From positions 1-10,110 of IMG/VR virus record IMGVR_UViG_2529293240_000015: 10,110 nt of DNA; one strand, given 5' to 3'. A program made the position numbers and the translations under genes. This document shows positions 1 to 7,543 of this stretch, piece by piece. This DNA is from a virus (taxonomy: Duplodnaviria > Heunggongvirae > Uroviricota > Caudoviricetes). Under the pieces are notes generated by a model. The model was not told where the DNA came from, did not search any database, and worked only from the letters and a program-made list of their open reading frames with translations. Every line of letters begins with the position of its first letter. Positions within the stretch are counted from its first letter, which is position 1.

Positions 1-39
1 ATGTTTACGCTGGCGGAAACGGGTTAGCGTTTGCCCCAG
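1..39 (-). pseudogene. dpiA: dpiA (citB) response regulator, distal part of the insertion-disrupted gene (partial, continues beyond window start)
   Basis: Reverse complement of 39..1 translates LGQTLTRFRQRKH, continuing in frame the receiver-domain ORF interrupted at 8305 (...YERLG). Matches my recollection of E. coli DpiA (...ERLGQTLTRFRQRK...). Not verified by search. Confidence 0.75.
35..39. repeat. Left copy of 5-bp target-site duplication CCCAG flanking the Mu-like element
   Basis: CCCAG lies immediately outside the left phage end (TG at 40..41) and is repeated identically at 8305..8309 immediately outside the right end (CA at 8303..8304). A 5-bp duplication is the known Mu transposition signature. 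Confidence 0.85.
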
Positions 40-250
40 TGTATTGATTCACTTGAAGTACGAAAAAACCGGGAGAACATTGGATTATTCGGGATCTGAT
101 GGGATTAGATTTGGTGGGGCTTGCAAGCCTGTAGTACAAATTTTAGGCGTTAACCAATGAAACGCGAAAGATAGTAAAAAATTGCTTTTGTTTCATTGAA
201 AAAACGAAAACAAAAACACTATAAATCATTTCAATCATAGCTTCAAAAAA
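40..250 (+). other. Mu-type left end (attL) with transposase-binding repeats (L1-L3 region)
   Basis: Terminal 5'-TG; repeated TGxTTCAYT...CGAAA(A) motifs, e.g. TTGATTCACTTGAAGTACGAAAAAA near 44..68 and TGTTTCATTGAAAAAACGAAAAC near 199..221; matches recalled Mu left-end sequence almost base for base. Extent is approximate. Confidence 0.7.
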
Positions 251-375
251 CGTTCAAAACCGATAACAACCAGGCTGTCACCAAATGACTCATATCACAA
301 ATCAGCTCATGCCGTTTAGGTATGTTACATGTGTGATTATGTGAGGTTAAGTATGTTTTAGCTGGCTCATGGTTG

Positions 376-885
376 TTATACGGCTTTTTTCGCATCTTGT
401 GGTTCCAACAAAGGAGCTACAGGCTCTTCCTGTTTATGAACACCATACATTGACAAAATCTCTTGGCGAGTTTCTGGAGGTAATTTATGCAGCGCCAAAG
501 CTGTTTGTAGTGTTTGGCGATCAATACCCAGCGTTGCCAATAGGGTGTCAACGGAGATGGAGGGGCGTTCTTGCATTAATCCGGAAAGCCCATATTTAGC
601 CATGTTTAGCTCTATCTCTCGGACTTCATTTTCTCCTAGTTTATTGATTAACAGGGAGAACATTTTCAATGTATCAGCATTCATTTCTTCGATAGCAATT
701 TTTTGCATAGCCGGTATTGCCGGGATATATTCAACCCCAGGCCCGCGACGCCCTTCTTGTGAACGCTTCGGCCATCCTTCTTTCTTTGCTCGTTTATGCA
801 CCCCCTGTATTGTCCCAGGCATTCCATCCAGTTCAGTAATTTGTTTGGGTGTCATCCACTGGTTTATCTCATTTGCGCTTTTCAT
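376..885 (-). CDS. c: Mu-like phage repressor c (immunity repressor), 169 aa
   Basis: Divergent from ner, as in Mu. N-terminal motif LDGMPGTIQGVHKRAKKEGWPKRSQEGRRGPGVEY is paralogous to the N-terminus of the transposase in this same window ([33 protein letters not shown]); the repressor and MuA share this DNA-binding domain in Mu. Confidence 0.8.
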   Translation of the reverse strand: MKSANEINQWMTPKQITELDGMPGTIQGVHKRAKKEGWPKRSQEGRRGPGVEYIPAIPAMQKIAIEEMNADTLKMFSLLINKLGENEVREIELNMAKYGLSGLMQERPSISVDTLLATLGIDRQTLQTALALHKLPPETRQEILSMYGVHKQEEPVAPLLEPQDAKKAV

Positions 886-1047
886 AAACTAAGTTTACCA
901 GATTTATCTATATAAAAATCAATGGATTACAAAATAAACCACATCAACTGATATAAATCGATTGGGTTTATTTGGTTTATATGGCAATGTATAAAACAGA
1001 TAATCAAGACGAATTATTTGTTTTGATAACCCTTTATCATACGCAAT
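886..1047. promoter_or_regulatory. c/ner divergent operator and early promoter region (Mu O1-O3, Pe/Pc equivalent) with an IHF consensus match
   Basis: AT-rich 160-bp intergenic region between divergent c and ner; AATCAATGGATTA at 917..929 fits the IHF consensus WATCAANNNNTTR; repeated GGTTTAT motifs at about 975..995. Individual operators not delimited. Confidence 0.5.
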
Positions 1048-1302
1048 ATGGTTGGTGTGCGAAAGATGAGTAACGATTGGCATCGGGCCGACGTGATTGC
1101 GGCCCTCAAAAAAACAGGAACCCCTCTGGCAAAATTGTCCAGACGTTCAGGTTATTCAACCGGGACGCTTGCAAATGCATTAGTCAGGCCATGGCCTAAA
1201 GGTGAACGCATTATTGCTGACGCCTTAAACATGAAACCTGAGGAAATTTGGCCTAGTAGATATCTAAGGGATCACAATGAGAGAGTGGATATCAGCAATT
1301 GA
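1048..1302 (+). CDS. ner: Ner-like DNA-binding transcriptional regulator (Mu Ner / E. coli Nlp family)
   Basis: DWHRADVIAALKK...TLANAL..PWPKGERIIADAL..KPEEIWPSRY matches the Ner/Nlp family signature. True start may be the second ATG at 1066 (MSNDWHR...). Confidence 0.85.
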   Translation: MVGVRKMSNDWHRADVIAALKKTGTPLAKLSRRSGYSTGTLANALVRPWPKGERIIADALNMKPEEIWPSRYLRDHNERVDISN

Positions 1303-2912
1303 ATGCATGGGTTTATCTGGTTTACCTGGTTCATTAATGGGGGGTTCACAAAAGAGCTCAGAGAGAAGGATGGCTCAAGAGAAGAAGAGAAGGAATTAGA
1401 GGGGTTGCTTACGAATACCATATATCTTCTCTTCCTAACATTGCTCGAGCTGAAGTTTTGCTCCAACAAGGAAAATTTAAAACCAGTCAGGGATGTTTTG
1501 AAATCGCCCGCCCCACGCTGGAAGCTCATGATTATGATCGTGAGGCACTATGGAGCAAATGGGATAAAGCCAGCGATTCCCAGCGCAGCCTGGCTGAAAA
1601 ATGGTTGCCCTCAATTCAGGCCACAGACGAAATGCTGAACCAGGGGATTTCAACGAAAACGGCTTTTGCGACCGTTGCAGGGCATTACCAGGTCAGCGCA
1701 TCCACTTTGCGGGACAAGTATTACCAGGTACAGAAGTTTGCGAAGCCTGACTGGGCGGCTGCACTTGTTGATGGACGTGGAGCATCCCGTCGCAATGTTC
1801 ACAAAAGTGAATTTGACAAGGATGCCTGGCAGTTTCTGATTGCAGATTATCTGCGACCGGAAAAACCCGCCTTCCGCAAATGTTATGAGCGTCTGGAACT
1901 GGCAGCCCGCGAGCATGGCTGGAGTATTCCCTCCCGTGCCACGGCCTTTCGCCGGATTCAGCAACTGGACGAGGCAATGGTTGTTGCCTGTCGTGAAGGT
2001 GAACATGCACTGATGCATCTGATACCGGCACAGCAGCGAACTGTGGAACACCTGGACGCCATGCAGTGGATCAACGGCGACGGTTATCTGCATAACGTCT
2101 TTGTACGCTGGTTTAACGGTGATGTGATCCGTCCGAAAACATGGTTCTGGCAGGATGTGAAAACCCGAAAAATTCTGGGCTGGCGCTGCGATGTGAGCGA
2201 GAACATTGATTCAATTCGCCTCTCGTTCATGGATGTTGTGACTCGCTACAGTATCCCGGAGGATTTTCACATCACCATTGATAACACCCGTGGTGCTGCG
2301 AATAAATGGCTGACGGGAGGCGCGCCCAATCGCTACCGCTTTAAGGTAAAAGAGGACGATCCAAAAGGACTGTTTTTACTGATGGGTGCGAAAATGCACT
2401 GGACAAGCGTTGTTGCCGGTAAAGGCTGGGGCCAGGCAAAACCTGTTGAACGTGCTTTCGGTGTTGGTGGGCTTGAGGAATACGTTGATAAGCATCCGGC
2501 ACTGGCTGGCGCATATACGGGGCCAAATCCGCAGGCAAAACCTGATAACTATGGCGACCGCGCTGTTGATGCAGAGCTGTTTCTGAAAACCCTTGCCGAA
2601 GGTGTGGCGATGTTCAATGCCAGAACAGGCCGTGAAACAGAAATGTGCGGGGGCAAACTCTCGTTTGATGATGTTTTCGAGCGTGAATACGCCAGAACGA
2701 TTGTGCGTAAGCCAACCGAAGAACAAAAACGGATGCTGTTACTGCCTGCCGAGGCAGTGAACGTTTCACGCAAAGGCGAGTTTACGCTTAAAGTTGGCGG
2801 CTCCCTTAAAGGCGCGAAAAACGTTTATTACAACATGGCATTAATGAATGCCGGAGTGAAAAAAGTTGTGGTCAGATTTGATCCACAGCAGTTACACAGC
2901 ACGGTTTATTGA
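1277..2912 (+). pseudogene. A: Mu-like transposase A, pseudogene: +1 frameshift in G6 run at 1339..1344 and C-terminal truncation by IS600 at 2910
   Basis: ATG at 1277 gives [23 protein letters not shown] (cf. Mu MELWVSPKECANLPGLPKTSAGV); after GGGGGG the homologous frame shifts by one base ([10 protein letters not shown]...[27 protein letters not shown]...), continuing through the DDE core ([19 protein letters not shown]) to ...QQLHSTVY, where the TGA stop is supplied by the IS600 terminus. Mu A has about 100 further C-terminal residues (CYTLDGRF...) that are absent. Confidence 0.9.
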
Positions 2913-2973
2913 GGTAGCCTGAGTTTAACGGACACTCCTTCCTGAAATAGAATGGCATCAGAAGGAGCTAATA

Positions 2974-3276
2974 ATGAGCAGAAAAACCCAACGTTACTCT
3001 AAAGAGTTCAAAGCCGAAGCTGTCAGAACGGTTCTTGAAAATCAACTTTCGATCAGTGAAGGCGCTTCCCGATTATCTCTTCCTGAAGGCACTTTAGGAC
3101 AATGGGTTACCGCCGCCAGAAAAGGGCTCGGTACTCCTGGTTCCCGCACGGTGGCTGAACTGGAATCTGAAATTCTGCAACTGCGTAAGGCGTTAAATGA
3201 AGCTCGCCTTGAGCGAGATATATTAAAAAAAGCAACAGCGTATTTTGCACAGGAGTCGCTGAAAAATACGCGTTAA
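2974..3276 (+). CDS. IS600 OrfA (IS3-family transposase N-terminal, HTH/leucine-zipper protein)
   Basis: MSRKTQRYSKEFKAEAVRTVLENQLSISEGASRLSLPEGTLGQWV...; AGGAG Shine-Dalgarno at 2963..2967. Confidence 0.9.
   Translation: MSRKTQRYSKEFKAEAVRTVLENQLSISEGASRLSLPEGTLGQWVTAARKGLGTPGSRTVAELESEILQLRKALNEARLERDILKKATAYFAQESLKNTR
3225..3231 (+). other. IS600 programmed -1 ribosomal frameshift slippery run (A7 followed by G) joining orfA to orfB
   Basis: tta aaa aaa g in the orfA frame; shifting -1 here continues in the orfB frame (orfB is in frame 0, orfA in frame 1), giving the OrfAB fusion typical of IS3-family elements. Confidence 0.7.
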
Positions 3277-3311
3277 TCGAACAATGGCGACAACAATTTC
3301 CCATTGAAGCG

Positions 3312-4130
3312 ATGTGTCAGGTATTTGGTGTATCCAGGAGCGGTTATTACAACTGGGTACAGCATGAACCCTCAGACAGAAAACAAAGTGATGAGCGGCT
3401 AAAACTGGAGATTAAGGTGGCACATATCCGCACTCGCGAAACATATGGAACCCGGCGGCTCCAGACGGAGCTGGCAGAGAATGGCATCATCGTTGGTCGT
3501 GACCGACTGGCACGTCTTCGTAAGGAGCTAAGGCTACGCTGTAAGCAGAAACGCAAGTTCAGAGCGACTACGAACCCGAACCACAATCTGCCAGTTGCGC
3601 CAAATCTGCTGAACCAGACGTTCGCTCCTACAGCACCAAATCAGGTCTGGGTGGCGGACCTGACGTATGTTGCCACACAGGAGGGATGGTTGTACCTCGC
3701 TGGCATCAAAGATGTTTATACGTGCGAAATTGTCGGCTACGCCATGGGAGAGCGCATGACAAAAGAGCTGACAGGTAAAGCCCTGTTTATGGCGCTCAGG
3801 AGCCAGCGCCCACCTGCCGGGCTAATCCACCACTCTGATCGAGGTTCACAGTACTGCGCATACGATTACCGGGTCATACAGGAGCAGTTTGGTCTGAAAA
3901 CATCAATGTCGCGTAAAGGTAACTGTTACGACAACGCTCCGATGGAAAGCTTCTGGGGAACGCTGAAAAATGAGAGCCTGAGCCACTATCGTTTTAATAA
4001 CCGGGATGAAGCCATCTCAGTAATACGGGAATACATTGAGATTTTCTACAATCGTCAGCGTCGTCACTCTCGTCTGGGGAATATCTCCCCGGCAGCCTTC
4101 AGGGAAAAATATCATCAGATGGCTGCTTAA
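3312..4130 (+). CDS. IS600 OrfB (IS3-family DDE transposase catalytic domain; expressed as OrfAB fusion)
   Basis: ...QVWVADLTYV...IHHSDRGSQY...NAPMESFWGTLKNE... is the IS3-family integrase-like DDE core; the reading frame is open upstream of the 3312 ATG back to the slippery site. Confidence 0.9.
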   Translation: MCQVFGVSRSGYYNWVQHEPSDRKQSDERLKLEIKVAHIRTRETYGTRRLQTELAENGIIVGRDRLARLRKELRLRCKQKRKFRATTNPNHNLPVAPNLLNQTFAPTAPNQVWVADLTYVATQEGWLYLAGIKDVYTCEIVGYAMGERMTKELTGKALFMALRSQRPPAGLIHHSDRGSQYCAYDYRVIQEQFGLKTSMSRKGNCYDNAPMESFWGTLKNESLSHYRFNNRDEAISVIREYIEIFYNRQRRHSRLGNISPAAFREKYHQMAA

Positions 4131-4173
4131 AAAAAGAACAAATGGTAGTGTCCGCTATTGCCAGTACACCTCA

Positions 4174-4890
4174 AACAATAAGGTCATTACAGATACAGGT
4201 TGCGGAAATATTTGTCTTGCAGGTGCTGTGGTGGAAGTTACTGGCACTCGCGGCGCAATGACCATACGCGTTACTACGCCAAGTACGTCCAGCGGCGGCG
4301 GAATCACTAACGCTCAATTCACTTATATTAATCATGGTGATGCTTATGCTCCTGGCTGGCGAAGAGACTACAATACGAAAAACCAGCAGCCTGCATTTGC
4401 TTTAGGGCAAACAGGAAGCAGGGTTGCAAATGATAAAGCTGTTGGCTGGAACTGGAATAGCGGTGTTTATGATGCAAATATCAGCGGTGCATCAACATTA
4501 ATCCTCCACTTCAATAAGAATACGGGGAGCTGCCCTGCTGTACAGTTCCGTGTGAATTATAAGAACGGCGGTATTTTTTATCGTTCAGCGCGTGATGGTT
4601 ATGGATTTGAGGCTGGCTGGTCAGAGTTTTACACCACAACACGCAAGCCATCAGCGAGAGATGTTGGCGCATATACGCAGGCAGAATGTAACTCAAGGTT
4701 TATTACAGGTATTCGCCTTGGTGGTCTGTCATCTGTTCGGACATGGAATGGTCCCGGCTGGTCTGACAGGTCAGGTTATGTTGTTACCGGTTCCGTTAAC
4801 TCAAACAGAGATGAACTAATTGATACAACTCAGGCAAGGCCAATTCAGTATTGCATTAATGGGACGTGGTATAACGCGGGGAGTATTTAA
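4174..4890 (+). pseudogene. S: Tail-fibre variable C-terminal region (Mu S variable part equivalent), 5'-truncated at the IS600 boundary
   Basis: Frame is open from inside IS600 (the track ORF at 4036 is a chimera); C-terminus ...RPIQYCINGTWYNAGSI parallels the end of the minus-strand cassette (...[17 protein letters not shown]); immediately followed by a tail-fibre assembly gene. No phage-derived start or constant region is present. Confidence 0.7.
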
Positions 4891-4892
4891 CG

Positions 4893-5426
4893 ATGATGCA
4901 CTTAAAAAACATTTCTGCTGGTAATCCTGAAACAAAAGAGCAATACCAGCTAACGAAACAATTTAACATCAAATGGCTTTATACAGAGGATGGGAAAAAC
5001 TGGTATGAGGAACAAAAGAACTTTCAGCCTGATACGTTGAAAATGGTCTATGACCACAACGGCGTTATTATTTGTATTGAAAAGGATGTTTCAGCAATTA
5101 ATCCGGAAGGCGCAAGCGTCGTTGAGGTTCCTGATATTACAGCAAATCACCGGGCTGATATTTCAGGTAAATGGATGTTCAAAGATGGCATAGTGATAAA
5201 GCGAACTTATACCGGGGAAGAGCAGAGGCAACAAGTGGAAAATGAAAAGCAAAGCCTGTTGCAACTTGTCAGGGATAAAACCCAGCTATGGGACTCACAG
5301 CTACGGCTGGGCATCATTTCCGCCGGGAATAAGCAGAAATTAACCGAGTGGATGCTCTACGCGCAGAAGGTCGAATCCACAGACACCTCCAGTCTGCCAG
5401 TAACGTTTCCCGAACAACCAGAATGA
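4893..5426 (+). CDS. U: Tail-fibre assembly protein (Mu U-like chaperone), 177 aa
   Basis: MMHLKNISAGN...DGKNWYEEQKNFQPDT...[28 protein letters not shown] is the Tfa/U family signature; starts 2 nt after the tail-fibre stop. Confidence 0.8.
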   Translation: MMHLKNISAGNPETKEQYQLTKQFNIKWLYTEDGKNWYEEQKNFQPDTLKMVYDHNGVIICIEKDVSAINPEGASVVEVPDITANHRADISGKWMFKDGIVIKRTYTGEEQRQQVENEKQSLLQLVRDKTQLWDSQLRLGIISAGNKQKLTEWMLYAQKVESTDTSSLPVTFPEQPE

Positions 5427-5431
5427 GAGAA

Positions 5432-5457
5432 GGCCCGCTATCGGGCCTTAATTTTTA
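5432..5457 (+). terminator. Rho-independent terminator hairpin between the convergent U and U' genes
   Basis: GGCCCG-ctat-CGGGCC stem-loop (5432..5447) followed by TTAATTTTTA on the plus strand, directly after the U stop codon. Confidence 0.6.
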
Positions 5458-5982
5458 CTCTGGTTTTTGTGGCCATTCTGGCTTTGCCGTATCCACACGG
5501 CTGACCAGAACACTGTAGCGTTCCCATGACTCCAGTCGTGCGCGTTCCTCATCTGTTGCCATATTCAGCCTGACAGAGCGCTCCAGCGGCTGGATGACTG
5601 ATTCAGCTTCGGAAAGCAATGCGGCTTTTTGTGATTCGGCCTGTTGCTGCTGTTCGTCTGCCGTATAAATCCGCTTAACCACAGCTCCGTCCTTAAACAT
5701 CCACTTCCCGGAATCATCGGCACGACGATTTGCTGTTATATCGGGGACCTCAACGACGCTAAAGCCTTCAGGATTAAGCGTGGAGGCATCTTTAGTGATG
5801 GCGACAATAATATTATTTTCATCGTAAACAATCTTTATTGTATCTGGCTGAAAGTTCTTCACTTCCCCATACCAGTTTTTTCCGTCTTCTGTCCACAACC
5901 AGATTACGTCAAAATTCTTTGTTAATTCGTACTGTTCCAGTGTTTTAGCGTTACCCGCTTTAATGTTCTTTAAGTGCATCAT
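5455..5982 (-). CDS. U': Tail-fibre assembly protein (Mu U'-like chaperone), 175 aa
   Basis: Paralogue of the plus-strand U ([11 protein letters not shown]...[16 protein letters not shown]...[19 protein letters not shown]), encoded convergently, as in the Mu invertible G segment. Confidence 0.8.
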
Positions 5983-5983
5983 A

Positions 5984-6970
5984 TTAAACGCTCGCTACAT
6001 TATACCAAGTGCCATTTATATACTTTTGAATCGGTCTGTAATAAACACCCGCAATATTATCGGCAGAGTTGGAACCTGTATCCTGAACATTAATACCAGA
6101 CAATACATGACCTGAAGGGCACTGAAAATTCCATGTTTGCCAGTTGTTCACTCCATAATATTGCTGTGAACCAAGTCGAACATCTTTCACATATCTGGAA
6201 TCAAAATTGCCATAGTTGCCGGGAATAACTTGCGAACCGCAAAGCCAGTTCCCGTTATTATCCATGTACGCCTGACCATCGGTGCCATTGGCTGTCCTTG
6301 AGTTATTAATCATGTAGATGCCAAATTGCCTATTCCCCAGCCCACCAATTACGAATTTACGGTCGGTATGGTCCTGGCGAAGCAATGCCTGCGCACCATC
6401 GTTGGATACCGCATTACGGCCCATAATAACGTTCTGGTCACGCATATGAATCCACATGCCTGTACTGCTGTTAATTAAAAAACGGTTTGTAAATATATCT
6501 CCTGTAACAACCAGACCATGCCCCATGCTTATCCGGCCAGTTCTGAGATTAAGCGTAAAGGGGCGTAGTGGCCCTATATTACCATTTTCCCCTTCATTCT
6601 CTCGTGTAGGGATGATATGCAGGCATTCTTCAGAACGACGAAAAATGGCACCAAAAGATGAATTAAATATTCTCAGTGCATTGACCGTCGATATTTTTAC
6701 TTCACTGCTGAAAAGGGCTTTAACAAGAACATACAGAGCATCCCATTTAAGATTCATCAGGTCTTTAACCCGGCCGCCAGTGAGGTGGTGTCTCCATTTG
6801 AAATACTCATTGCCGTTGTCGCCTGTTTCAAACCACATGTATGAATCAGTATCGCTGTCGGCATCATTTTTAAATCCAATCTTTGCCCAGTCAGTATTCC
6901 GAATCCAGGCAAGGATTGAGTCGTTTTCAAAAGTAAGTCCACCGGACAACGTATCGCCATTTTTTTGCAC
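5984..6970 (-). CDS. S': Alternative tail-fibre variable cassette (Mu S' variable part equivalent); not a self-standing gene in the intact phage
   Basis: C-terminus ...[19 protein letters not shown]; stop is 1 nt from the U' start; the reading frame stays open upstream through the gix-like site (to at least 7043). In Mu this cassette is only expressed after inversion fuses it to the constant part of S. The track start at 6970 is a GTG. Confidence 0.7.
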
Positions 6971-6995
6971 GGCGTTACCAGCCTTGTTTACCGTT

Positions 6996-7021
6996 TCCTG
7001 TAAACCGAGGGGCCGTTTCTG
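6996..7021. other. gix-like recombination site at the right border of the tail-fibre cassette region (only one half-site recognisable)
   Basis: TTCCTGTAAACCGAGG at 6996..7011 matches the Gin crossover site as I recall it (TTCCTGTAAACC-GA-GGTTTTGGATAA); the following half (GGCCGTTTCTGG) does not match. No partner site was found at the left border near 4174. Confidence 0.45.
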
Positions 7022-7063
7022 GCCTGCATGGCATGATTTCCGCTTTTAAACGGGGAATTCAGC

Positions 7064-7261
7064 GTGCTGATTGGCTATGTAAGGGTATCAACAAATGACC
7101 AGAATACAGACCTGCAACGAAACGCTCTTGTTTGTGCAGGATGTGAACAAATATTTGAAGATAAATTAAGCGGAACAAGGACAGACCGACCGGGATTAAA
7201 ACGTGCTTTAAAGCGCCTTCAAAAAGGAACGCATATAGAAAACGACGATCGAATCAATTAA
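7064..7261 (+). pseudogene. gin: gin DNA invertase remnant: in-frame internal deletion leaving 65 aa (N-terminal 55 aa plus C-terminal THIENDDRIN)
   Basis: MLIGYVRVSTNDQNTDLQRNALVCAGCEQIFEDKLSGTRTDRPGLKRALKRLQKG matches the Gin/Hin serine-recombinase N-terminus including the catalytic Ser (VRVST); it then joins directly to the recalled Gin C-terminal tail (..HIENDDRIN). About 128 codons of catalytic and HTH domains are missing, relative to a roughly 190-aa Gin. Confidence 0.85.
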
Positions 7262-7354
7262 ATCGATCTGTATTACCGATCGATTATGTCCCGATAACCA
7301 CACCCGACTGATGAGATTTTTTAAGATAACGGCGAATTGATGCAAGGAGGTGAA
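7247..7354 (+). promoter_or_regulatory. mom operon regulatory region: three GATC (Dam) sites including an 8-bp inverted repeat, upstream of com
   Basis: GATC at 7247..7250, 7265..7268 and 7278..7281; AATCGATC (7261..7268) and GATCGATT (7278..7285) form an inverted repeat. In Mu this cluster is the Dam-methylation-sensitive OxyR-binding region of Pmom. GGAGG Shine-Dalgarno at 7346..7350. Confidence 0.65.
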
Positions 7355-7543
7355 ATGAAATCAATTCGCTGTAAGAACTGCAACAAACTGTTATTTAAAG
7401 CGGATTCCTTTGATCACATTGAAATCAGGTGTCCGCGTTGCAAACGTCACATCATAATGCTGAATGCCTGCGAGCATCCCACGGAGAAACATTGTGGGAA
7501 AAGAGAAGAAATCACGCATTCTGACGAAACCGTGCGTTATTGA
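7355..7543 (+). CDS. com: Com, zinc-finger translational activator of mom (62 aa)
   Basis: [61 protein letters not shown]; a Cys4 protein essentially identical to my recollection of Mu Com. Start chosen at the ATG preceded by GGAGG rather than the track ORF start at 7337. Confidence 0.85.

Follow-up and report, generated by a model that had tools for sequence, protein, structure and literature searches.

The G segment of phage Mu with its invertase Gin, the C segment of P1 with Cin and the P segment of e14 with Pin are textbook systems. In an intact phage, a Gin dimer at each of two inverted gix sites, acting with a Fis-bound enhancer, flips a 3-kb segment, and flipping fuses the constant part of the tail fibre gene (Sc) either to the variable part Sv, paired with the chaperone U, or to S'v, paired with the chaperone U'. 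To recombine DNA, invertases of this kind must assemble an invertasome from a pair of 26-bp sites, four invertase subunits (one dimer on each site) and an enhancer to which Fis is bound (PMC3798978); within Gin, the catalytic domain covers residues 1-100 with the nucleophile S9, the E helix residues 101-137 and the DNA-binding domain residue 138 to the end (PMC3575834). We analysed a 10,110-nucleotide stretch of viral DNA (IMG/VR record IMGVR_UViG_2529293240_000015, positions 1 to 10,110, hereafter the window), in which a host-range switch locked in one orientation had been predicted at 4174-7021. With a probability of roughly 93%, this region is a non-functional remnant of the Gin/G-segment host-range switch of an SfMu-related prophage, decayed within the response-regulator gene dpiA (also named citB) of Shigella flexneri.

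The closest sequenced phage is SfMu (KP010268), which comes from the same host species and has its G segment in the same orientation; SfMu-like remnants were reported from many S. flexneri serotypes in 2015 (PMC4406740). SfMu differs from the remnant in being a complete inducible phage with a 197-amino-acid (aa) Gin and two full gix sites. Window positions 4172-7227 aligned colinearly with the G region of SfMu (94.1% identity, BLAST against phage records), and identity was 96.5% over the gin 3' end, com, mom and the right end. G-region DNA matched Mu, D108, P1, P7, D6 and P88 at about 87-91%, including 87-90% for the Mu, D108 and P1 segments that the original prediction had named for comparison. 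Identities of this size to SfMu, Mu, D108, P1 and P7 indicate homology, not chance.

The likeness to Mu itself (Muvirus mu, AF083977) extends to gene content and order, from fibre-chaperone-chaperone-fibre through gin, com and mom to the right end, with an identical inner gix half-site and core, DNA identities of 87-90% and chaperone identities of 93-95%. Compared with Mu, however, the remnant is without gixL, Sc, 81 codons of S'v and the outer half of gixR, its Gin is 65 aa long, and its Sv-type cassette shares just 68% identity with Mu S. P1 and P7 (Cin) and e14 (Pin) carry the same kind of switch with homologous cassettes (DNA 88-90% identical to P1, P7 and D6), but the flanks here are Mu-specific (gin-com-mom, Mu ends and a 5-bp duplication), so the locus is not a P1 or e14 derivative. 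An origin from the P1 C segment or the e14 P segment was thus ruled out.

A Mu-derived invertase locus left in a Shigella chromosome by a decayed prophage has a parallel in pinD of S. dysenteriae; the title of a 1997 paper by Tominaga, as cited in PMC8987985, names a defective Mu prophage carrying this gene. Our literature searches on pinF, pinB and pinD and on a Mu prophage in S. flexneri citB returned nothing relevant. The pinD product is reportedly an active recombinase, unlike the inactive stub here, and Tominaga et al. are said to have described a 'defective pinF' of gin origin from S. flexneri in 1991.

Anatomy of the G-segment remnant

Two fibre cassettes, each with its own chaperone gene, face each other in opposite orientation within the remnant (4174-7008). 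On the plus strand lies a truncated cassette of the Mu S' type (4174-4890, 238 aa, Pfam gp37_C), 231 of whose 238 residues are identical to residues 251-488 of SfMu_49, the 488-aa SfMu fibre; it lacks Sc and the first 81 variable codons. SfMu_49 is itself more than 95% identical to Mu S' at the protein level (PMC4406740). It is followed by an intact 177-aa chaperone U' (4893-5426, plus strand, Caudo_TAP; 168/177 identical to Mu U' and 172/177 to SfMu_50). The minus strand carries an intact 175-aa chaperone U (5455-5982, Caudo_TAP, 163/175 identical to Mu U) and a complete variable cassette of the Mu S type (5984-7006, 340 codons) that is open from the gix half-site to the stop codon, with 298/321 identities to SfMu_52 (93%) and 225/331 to Mu S residues 171-503 (68%). 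A G+C-rich, terminator-like hairpin (5430-5449) sits between the convergent chaperone genes, and over about 400 bases the two halves of the segment repeat each other in inverted orientation, at about 70% identity.

The mirror-image arrangement of fibre and chaperone cassettes that had been predicted was therefore present, as judged from the open reading frames (ORFs), the Caudo_TAP domains, the inverted repeats and the homology to G and C segments. The strand labels of the original prediction (S and U on the plus strand, U' and S' on the minus strand) proved to be reversed, since by Mu homology the plus strand carries S'v/U' and the minus strand U/Sv. Its two variable cassettes were both found, the minus-strand one complete as proposed and the plus-strand one truncated, beginning only at fibre residue 251. 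The segment has the orientation of the SfMu record and is inverted relative to the Mu reference record, so that the S'v/U' side faces the former position of Sc.

To the left, G-segment DNA begins abruptly at 4174, directly at the right terminal repeat of a full-length copy of the insertion sequence IS600 (2910-4173, plus strand). This 1264-bp element of the IS3 family has imperfect 28-bp terminal inverted repeats and both orfA and orfB, and is 99.9% identical to annotated IS600 copies. Its flanks (TAT and AAC) do not form a 3-bp target duplication, which indicates that the junction arose by deletion or by recombination between IS copies and not by simple insertion. Window position 2909 corresponds to SfMu position 2900 and window position 4174 to SfMu position 32620; hence about 29.7 kb of phage DNA is gone (SfMu 2901-32619). 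Since gixL of SfMu sits 241 bp upstream of the point at which the window resumes, the gap includes gixL, the 169-codon Sc, 81 codons of S'v and all upstream late genes with their promoters. In place of an Sc and a late promoter outside the segment, the right end of IS600 abuts fibre residue 251. The predicted absence of a left gix site, of a 5' constant region and of a phage promoter is thus explained by this one gap.

At the right border, the lone gix half-site that had been placed at 6996-7011 was found within a few bases of that position, at 6995-7008 on the plus strand, and consists of the inner half-site TTCCTGTAAACC (6995-7006) and the core GA (7007-7008). Alignment revealed an 11-bp deletion (TTTTAGATAAT) between 7010 and 7011, 2 bp past the core; of the 12 bases that make up the outer half-site, 10 are lost. 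In Mu, SfMu and an Escherichia coli O124 contig (AAZDMU010000056.1) gixR reads TTCCTGTAAACC GA GGTTTT(A/G)GATAA, while in the window it reads TTCCTGTAAACC GA GG and passes at the junction directly into GGCCG. These 11 bp are absent from the window and from seven related loci (L003-L009). The ends of this deletion were without homology of the kind seen at the gin deletion described below.

Where a working switch has two inverted 26-bp sites, each made of 12-bp half-sites around a 2-bp core, a pattern search of the window found no full 26-bp gix site at up to 3 mismatches, and thus no second intact site; no copy of the other half-site was found in the window at up to 2 mismatches, and two weaker half-site matches were at chance level. 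We also observed that the gix sites of SfMu (about 2249-2274 and 5324-5349 of its locus) differ from those of Mu, with C for G beside the core in gixL (GA C...) and with a gixR reading GGTTTTAGATAA. These differences agree with the point mutation that the authors of SfMu offered for its unchanged host range, in that SfMu inversion is possibly impaired by a gix mutation (PMC4406740).

The invertase gene is reduced to a stub of 65 aa (7064-7261, plus strand) made of Gin residues 1-55, all 55 of which are identical to Gin, and the last 10 residues. The internal deletion that had been noted in gin is an in-frame loss of 384 bp with its junction at 7227/7228, and the missing stretch corresponds to positions 5568-5951 of the SfMu locus. 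The stub matched only positions 2-63 of the 145 of the Pfam Resolvase model and had no HTH_7 match. In contrast to a serine invertase with its S9 domain, E helix and C-terminal helix-turn-helix, the stub has lost residues 56-183 and with them half of the catalytic domain, all of the E helix and almost the entire DNA-binding domain, while S9 is still present. The first 164 bp of gin are kept, with encoded residues identical to those of Mu Gin, and may hold the recombinational enhancer, which we take to lie at the position given by Kahmann et al. in 1985. An imperfect 5-bp match at the ends of the deletion (AAAGG left, AAACG right) fits slippage or illegitimate recombination and not a site-specific event.

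Related genomes and the order of events

The complete genome CP100042.1 matched all 10,110 bases of the window at 99.99% identity, and in this genome, AFOW01000008.1 and UGYT01000001.1 the exact layout continues across the two IS600 junctions. The IS600 end is also where many draft contigs begin, for example four (L006-L009) that start at window positions 4176-4178. All of the independent remnant-bearing assemblies examined had the same orientation, and the 11-bp and 384-bp deletions were present in every one wherever the contig covered them. None of the complete E. coli genomes covered at least 80% of the window, which fits an arrangement specific to Shigella. The gixR deletion junction was not found in a species-representative genome collection, where Shigella is probably represented by generic E. 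coli only.

Other lineages have lost more of the remnant. In three loci (L003, L005 and L034) the same IS600 is flanked by deletions of window positions 313-2909 and 4175-4435, and the Sv-type cassette is longer by about 776 bases at 6219-6227, where an IS1 transposase is annotated; the length equals IS1 (768 bp) plus a target duplication, indicating an IS1 insertion in Sv. Two further loci (L004 and L031, CP049606.1) keep only window position 6665 onward, joined to unrelated DNA. In CP049606.1 (about 8000-10000 of the locus) this DNA is a phage-integrase fragment beside ybhA and modABC, and the junction points to a larger rearrangement of the chromosome, one breakpoint of which fell within the Sv-type cassette.

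A different arrangement was observed in S. flexneri 5 strain 8401 (CP000266.1) and nine others, which carry window positions 1-4174 at 99.3% identity, including the junction between transposase A and IS600. To the right of IS600 these have inverted Mu-type head genes (capsid, protease/scaffold, Mu F and portal), followed by another IS, the whole arrangement lying at about 1-7900 of the locus, which indicates IS600-mediated inversion in some lineages and deletion in others. A total of 6687 blocks of the collection, from records named Shigella flexneri, encode an identical c repressor protein. Given this distribution and the sharing of the left junction between the window and the 8401 type, the left junction is old and widespread, and the right junction of the window is one of several later IS600-mediated rearrangements. 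Such lineage-specific IS600 and IS1 rearrangements around a common left junction could mark S. flexneri phylogeny.

The E. coli O124 contig (AAZDMU010000056.1, enteroinvasive type) carries at 6350-11240 two intact gix sites and a complete Mu tail module, including tape-measure and baseplate genes, a 488-aa fibre gene, both chaperones and the second cassette, together with the identical 384-bp gin deletion. Against window positions 6974-8304 it retains the 11 bp and shows two substitutions and one single-base gap up to the Mu right end, where the contig ends, while its G segment is about 5% different. As intact gix sites occur here with the same gin deletion, the latter is the oldest of the three lesions, and it may already have been carried by a complete phage before the others arose.

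The sharing of this deletion hints at a gin-less lineage of Mu-like phage. We tentatively suggest, at somewhat worse than even odds, that the lock was set in a viable phage of fixed host range that circulated without gin in Shigella and enteroinvasive E. coli, and of which the S. flexneri remnant would be a descendant. Intact Mu-like E. coli prophages with the same Com protein have full invertases of 197-205 aa, and the chaperone beside their constant fibre gene is of the 177-aa type in some and of the 175-aa type in others, as expected of working switches caught in either state.

Loss of switching and competing explanations

The anatomy, the homologies and the deletions were read directly from the DNA, and the single orientation directly from the assemblies. 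The locus unambiguously descends from a functional switch and has neither the sites, the enzyme nor the constant part of one. Its three lesions, the IS600 gap, the 11 bp missing from gixR and the 384 bp missing from gin, are each sufficient to block inversion, and with no complete site and no enzyme the switch is dead, in agreement with the locked state that had been predicted. This is ordinary prophage decay and not a new system, a known kind of object in its expected state. The history we propose is that a Mu-like prophage transposed into dpiA of S. flexneri and afterwards decayed: the IS600-bounded gap would have taken gixL, Sc, the 81 S'v codons and the upstream late genes and promoters, the 11-bp deletion the outer half-site of gixR, and the in-frame deletion residues 56-183 of Gin. 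Even a flipped segment would then offer neither fibre an Sc or a late promoter.

A consensus scan found two sigma-70-like sites, fewer than the mean of 7.5 in shuffled sequence, and such sites being rarer than chance lends no support to new promoters driving the cassettes. The cassettes are probably silent and drifting neutrally. The evidence for neutral decay comes from other lineages and not from the window, the IS1 insertion in Sv and the further deletions indicating that the cassettes are not under selection.

Several observations weigh against this interpretation. All four fibre and chaperone ORFs in the window are free of internal stops. An ORF of 284 codons (4036-4890, plus strand) starts in the 3'-terminal part of IS600 and stays in frame across the junction with the truncated cassette, which could be expressed by read-through in this way. 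The order of the lesions rests on a single outgroup contig, that of E. coli O124, and the single orientation was seen in assemblies only. The ORF at 4036-4890 is probably meaningless; the region is annotated as a 255-aa protein in CP100042.1.

We considered whether the segment could still be switched in trans: a Din-family invertase encoded elsewhere in the genome, for instance by a second prophage with an enzyme resembling Pin or Cin, would then pair the surviving site with a cryptic one. One half-site and the core dinucleotide do survive, as do the first 164 bp of gin, perhaps with the enhancer, and Din invertases can cross-complement (PMC8987985). A dimer requires both half-sites, however (PMC3798978), and the window has no complete 26-bp site, no second site at up to 3 mismatches and only chance-level half-site matches; with one orientation in all assemblies as well, we regard switching in trans as highly improbable. 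Inversion mediated by RecA between the U and U' repeats was also considered and is unlikely, as these are only about 70% identical. An assembly artefact, in which contigs were misjoined through IS600 so that gixL and Sc in reality adjoin the segment, could be suspected because Shigella genomes carry many copies of IS600 and this very junction is where draft contigs are interrupted. Its likelihood is nonetheless negligible, given that three assemblies cross both junctions identically and that the deletions of 11 bp and 384 bp, which all these assemblies have in common, are both located in unique sequence.

It is also conceivable that the remnant is kept for a benefit to the host, through immunity to Mu-like phages conferred by the repressor, through Mom-type DNA modification, or as a reservoir of cassettes for recombination with other prophages. 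The reading frames of c, ner, com and mom, of both chaperones and of one complete fibre cassette are undamaged, thousands of S. flexneri assemblies share an identical c repressor, and a G region about 5% different from the E. coli O124 copy next to a near-identical gin-com-mom suggests cassette exchange. Clonal descent alone, however, can explain the wide occurrence, and other lineages have lost c-ner-A, gained IS1 in Sv or lost the whole G remnant. Expression of mom in Mu depends on the phage C activator, and the gene for C lay in the deleted part. Domestication of this kind seems to us very unlikely.

A decayed, inactive switch remains by far the best account, and its value is mainly one of annotation: the fibre and chaperone ORFs, the 65-aa 'recombinase family protein' and the truncated transposase in S. 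flexneri genomes belong to one dead prophage in dpiA and are not an active phase-variation or host-range switch.

The surrounding prophage and its host

From the ORF list, a Pfam scan and BLAST against phage records, the whole SfMu-like prophage, heavily deleted, occupies 40-8304 of the window. The source organism is S. flexneri, and the source records of the gin stub, the fibre cassette and the c repressor all name them as S. flexneri proteins. The prophage interrupts dpiA, which is split into 1-39 and 8305-8648 (minus strand), and dpiB and the cit (citrate lyase) operon adjoin. The gene order is c, ner, A (cut), IS600, the G remnant, the gin stub, com and mom, that is, the c-ner-A left and gin-com-mom right arrangement of a Muvirus with A and gin truncated, as supported by Pfam and by identities to SfMu and Mu. 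Of about 37 kb of Mu-type sequence, only about 7.0 kb is left, so that a full set of transposition, lysis, head and tail genes is lacking.

The Mu-type left end (attL, 40-375, plus strand) starts TGTATTGATTCACTTGAAGTACG / TGTATTGATTCAC at 40, and bases 40-270 are 82% identical to SfMu 1-233. The intact c repressor (376-885, minus strand, 169 aa) matched Pfam HTH_Tnp_Mu_1, and ner (1048-1302, plus strand) matched HTH_35 with E = 5e-29. Transposase A (1278-2909, plus strand; DDE_2, HTH_Tnp_Mu_1/2 and Mu-transpos_C) is cut by IS600 after about residue 544 of 662; its start is approximate, the mechanical ORF beginning at 1458. Window positions 1446-2911 are 97.8% identical to SfMu 1437-2902, and the protein is annotated as 544 aa in three of the related loci (L014, L019 and L040).

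A comparison with 50,697 phage records gave no close DNA match to the immunity region at 270-1460, which extends from the N-terminal part of c through the operators and ner to the start of A. Alignment was confined to the 3' end of c, at 87-89% to Mu and PhiR68_1 over 18% of the query, with no match in SfMu, so that in its DNA this region sets the remnant apart from SfMu. It looks like that of a Mu-like phage of a different immunity type, judging from the DNA comparison.

To the right of the gin stub lie an intact com (7355-7543, plus strand, Zn_ribbon_Com, 61 of 62 residues identical to Mu Com) and an intact mom (7464-8189, plus strand, Pfam Mom with E = 7e-75, 238 of 241 residues identical to SfMu Mom). 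The Mu-type right end (8190-8304, plus strand) finishes ...CGTGCGCCGCTTCA / ...GCCGCTTCA at 8304, and window positions 7223-8304 are 96% identical to the SfMu and Mu right ends. The pentamer CCCAG stands outside both ends, at 35-39 in host dpiA and at 8305-8309 directly beyond the right end, where the N-terminal part of dpiA (minus strand) and dpiB follow, and is the target duplication expected of Mu transposition. The dpiA reading frame continues into the Mu right end (ORF 8265-8648).

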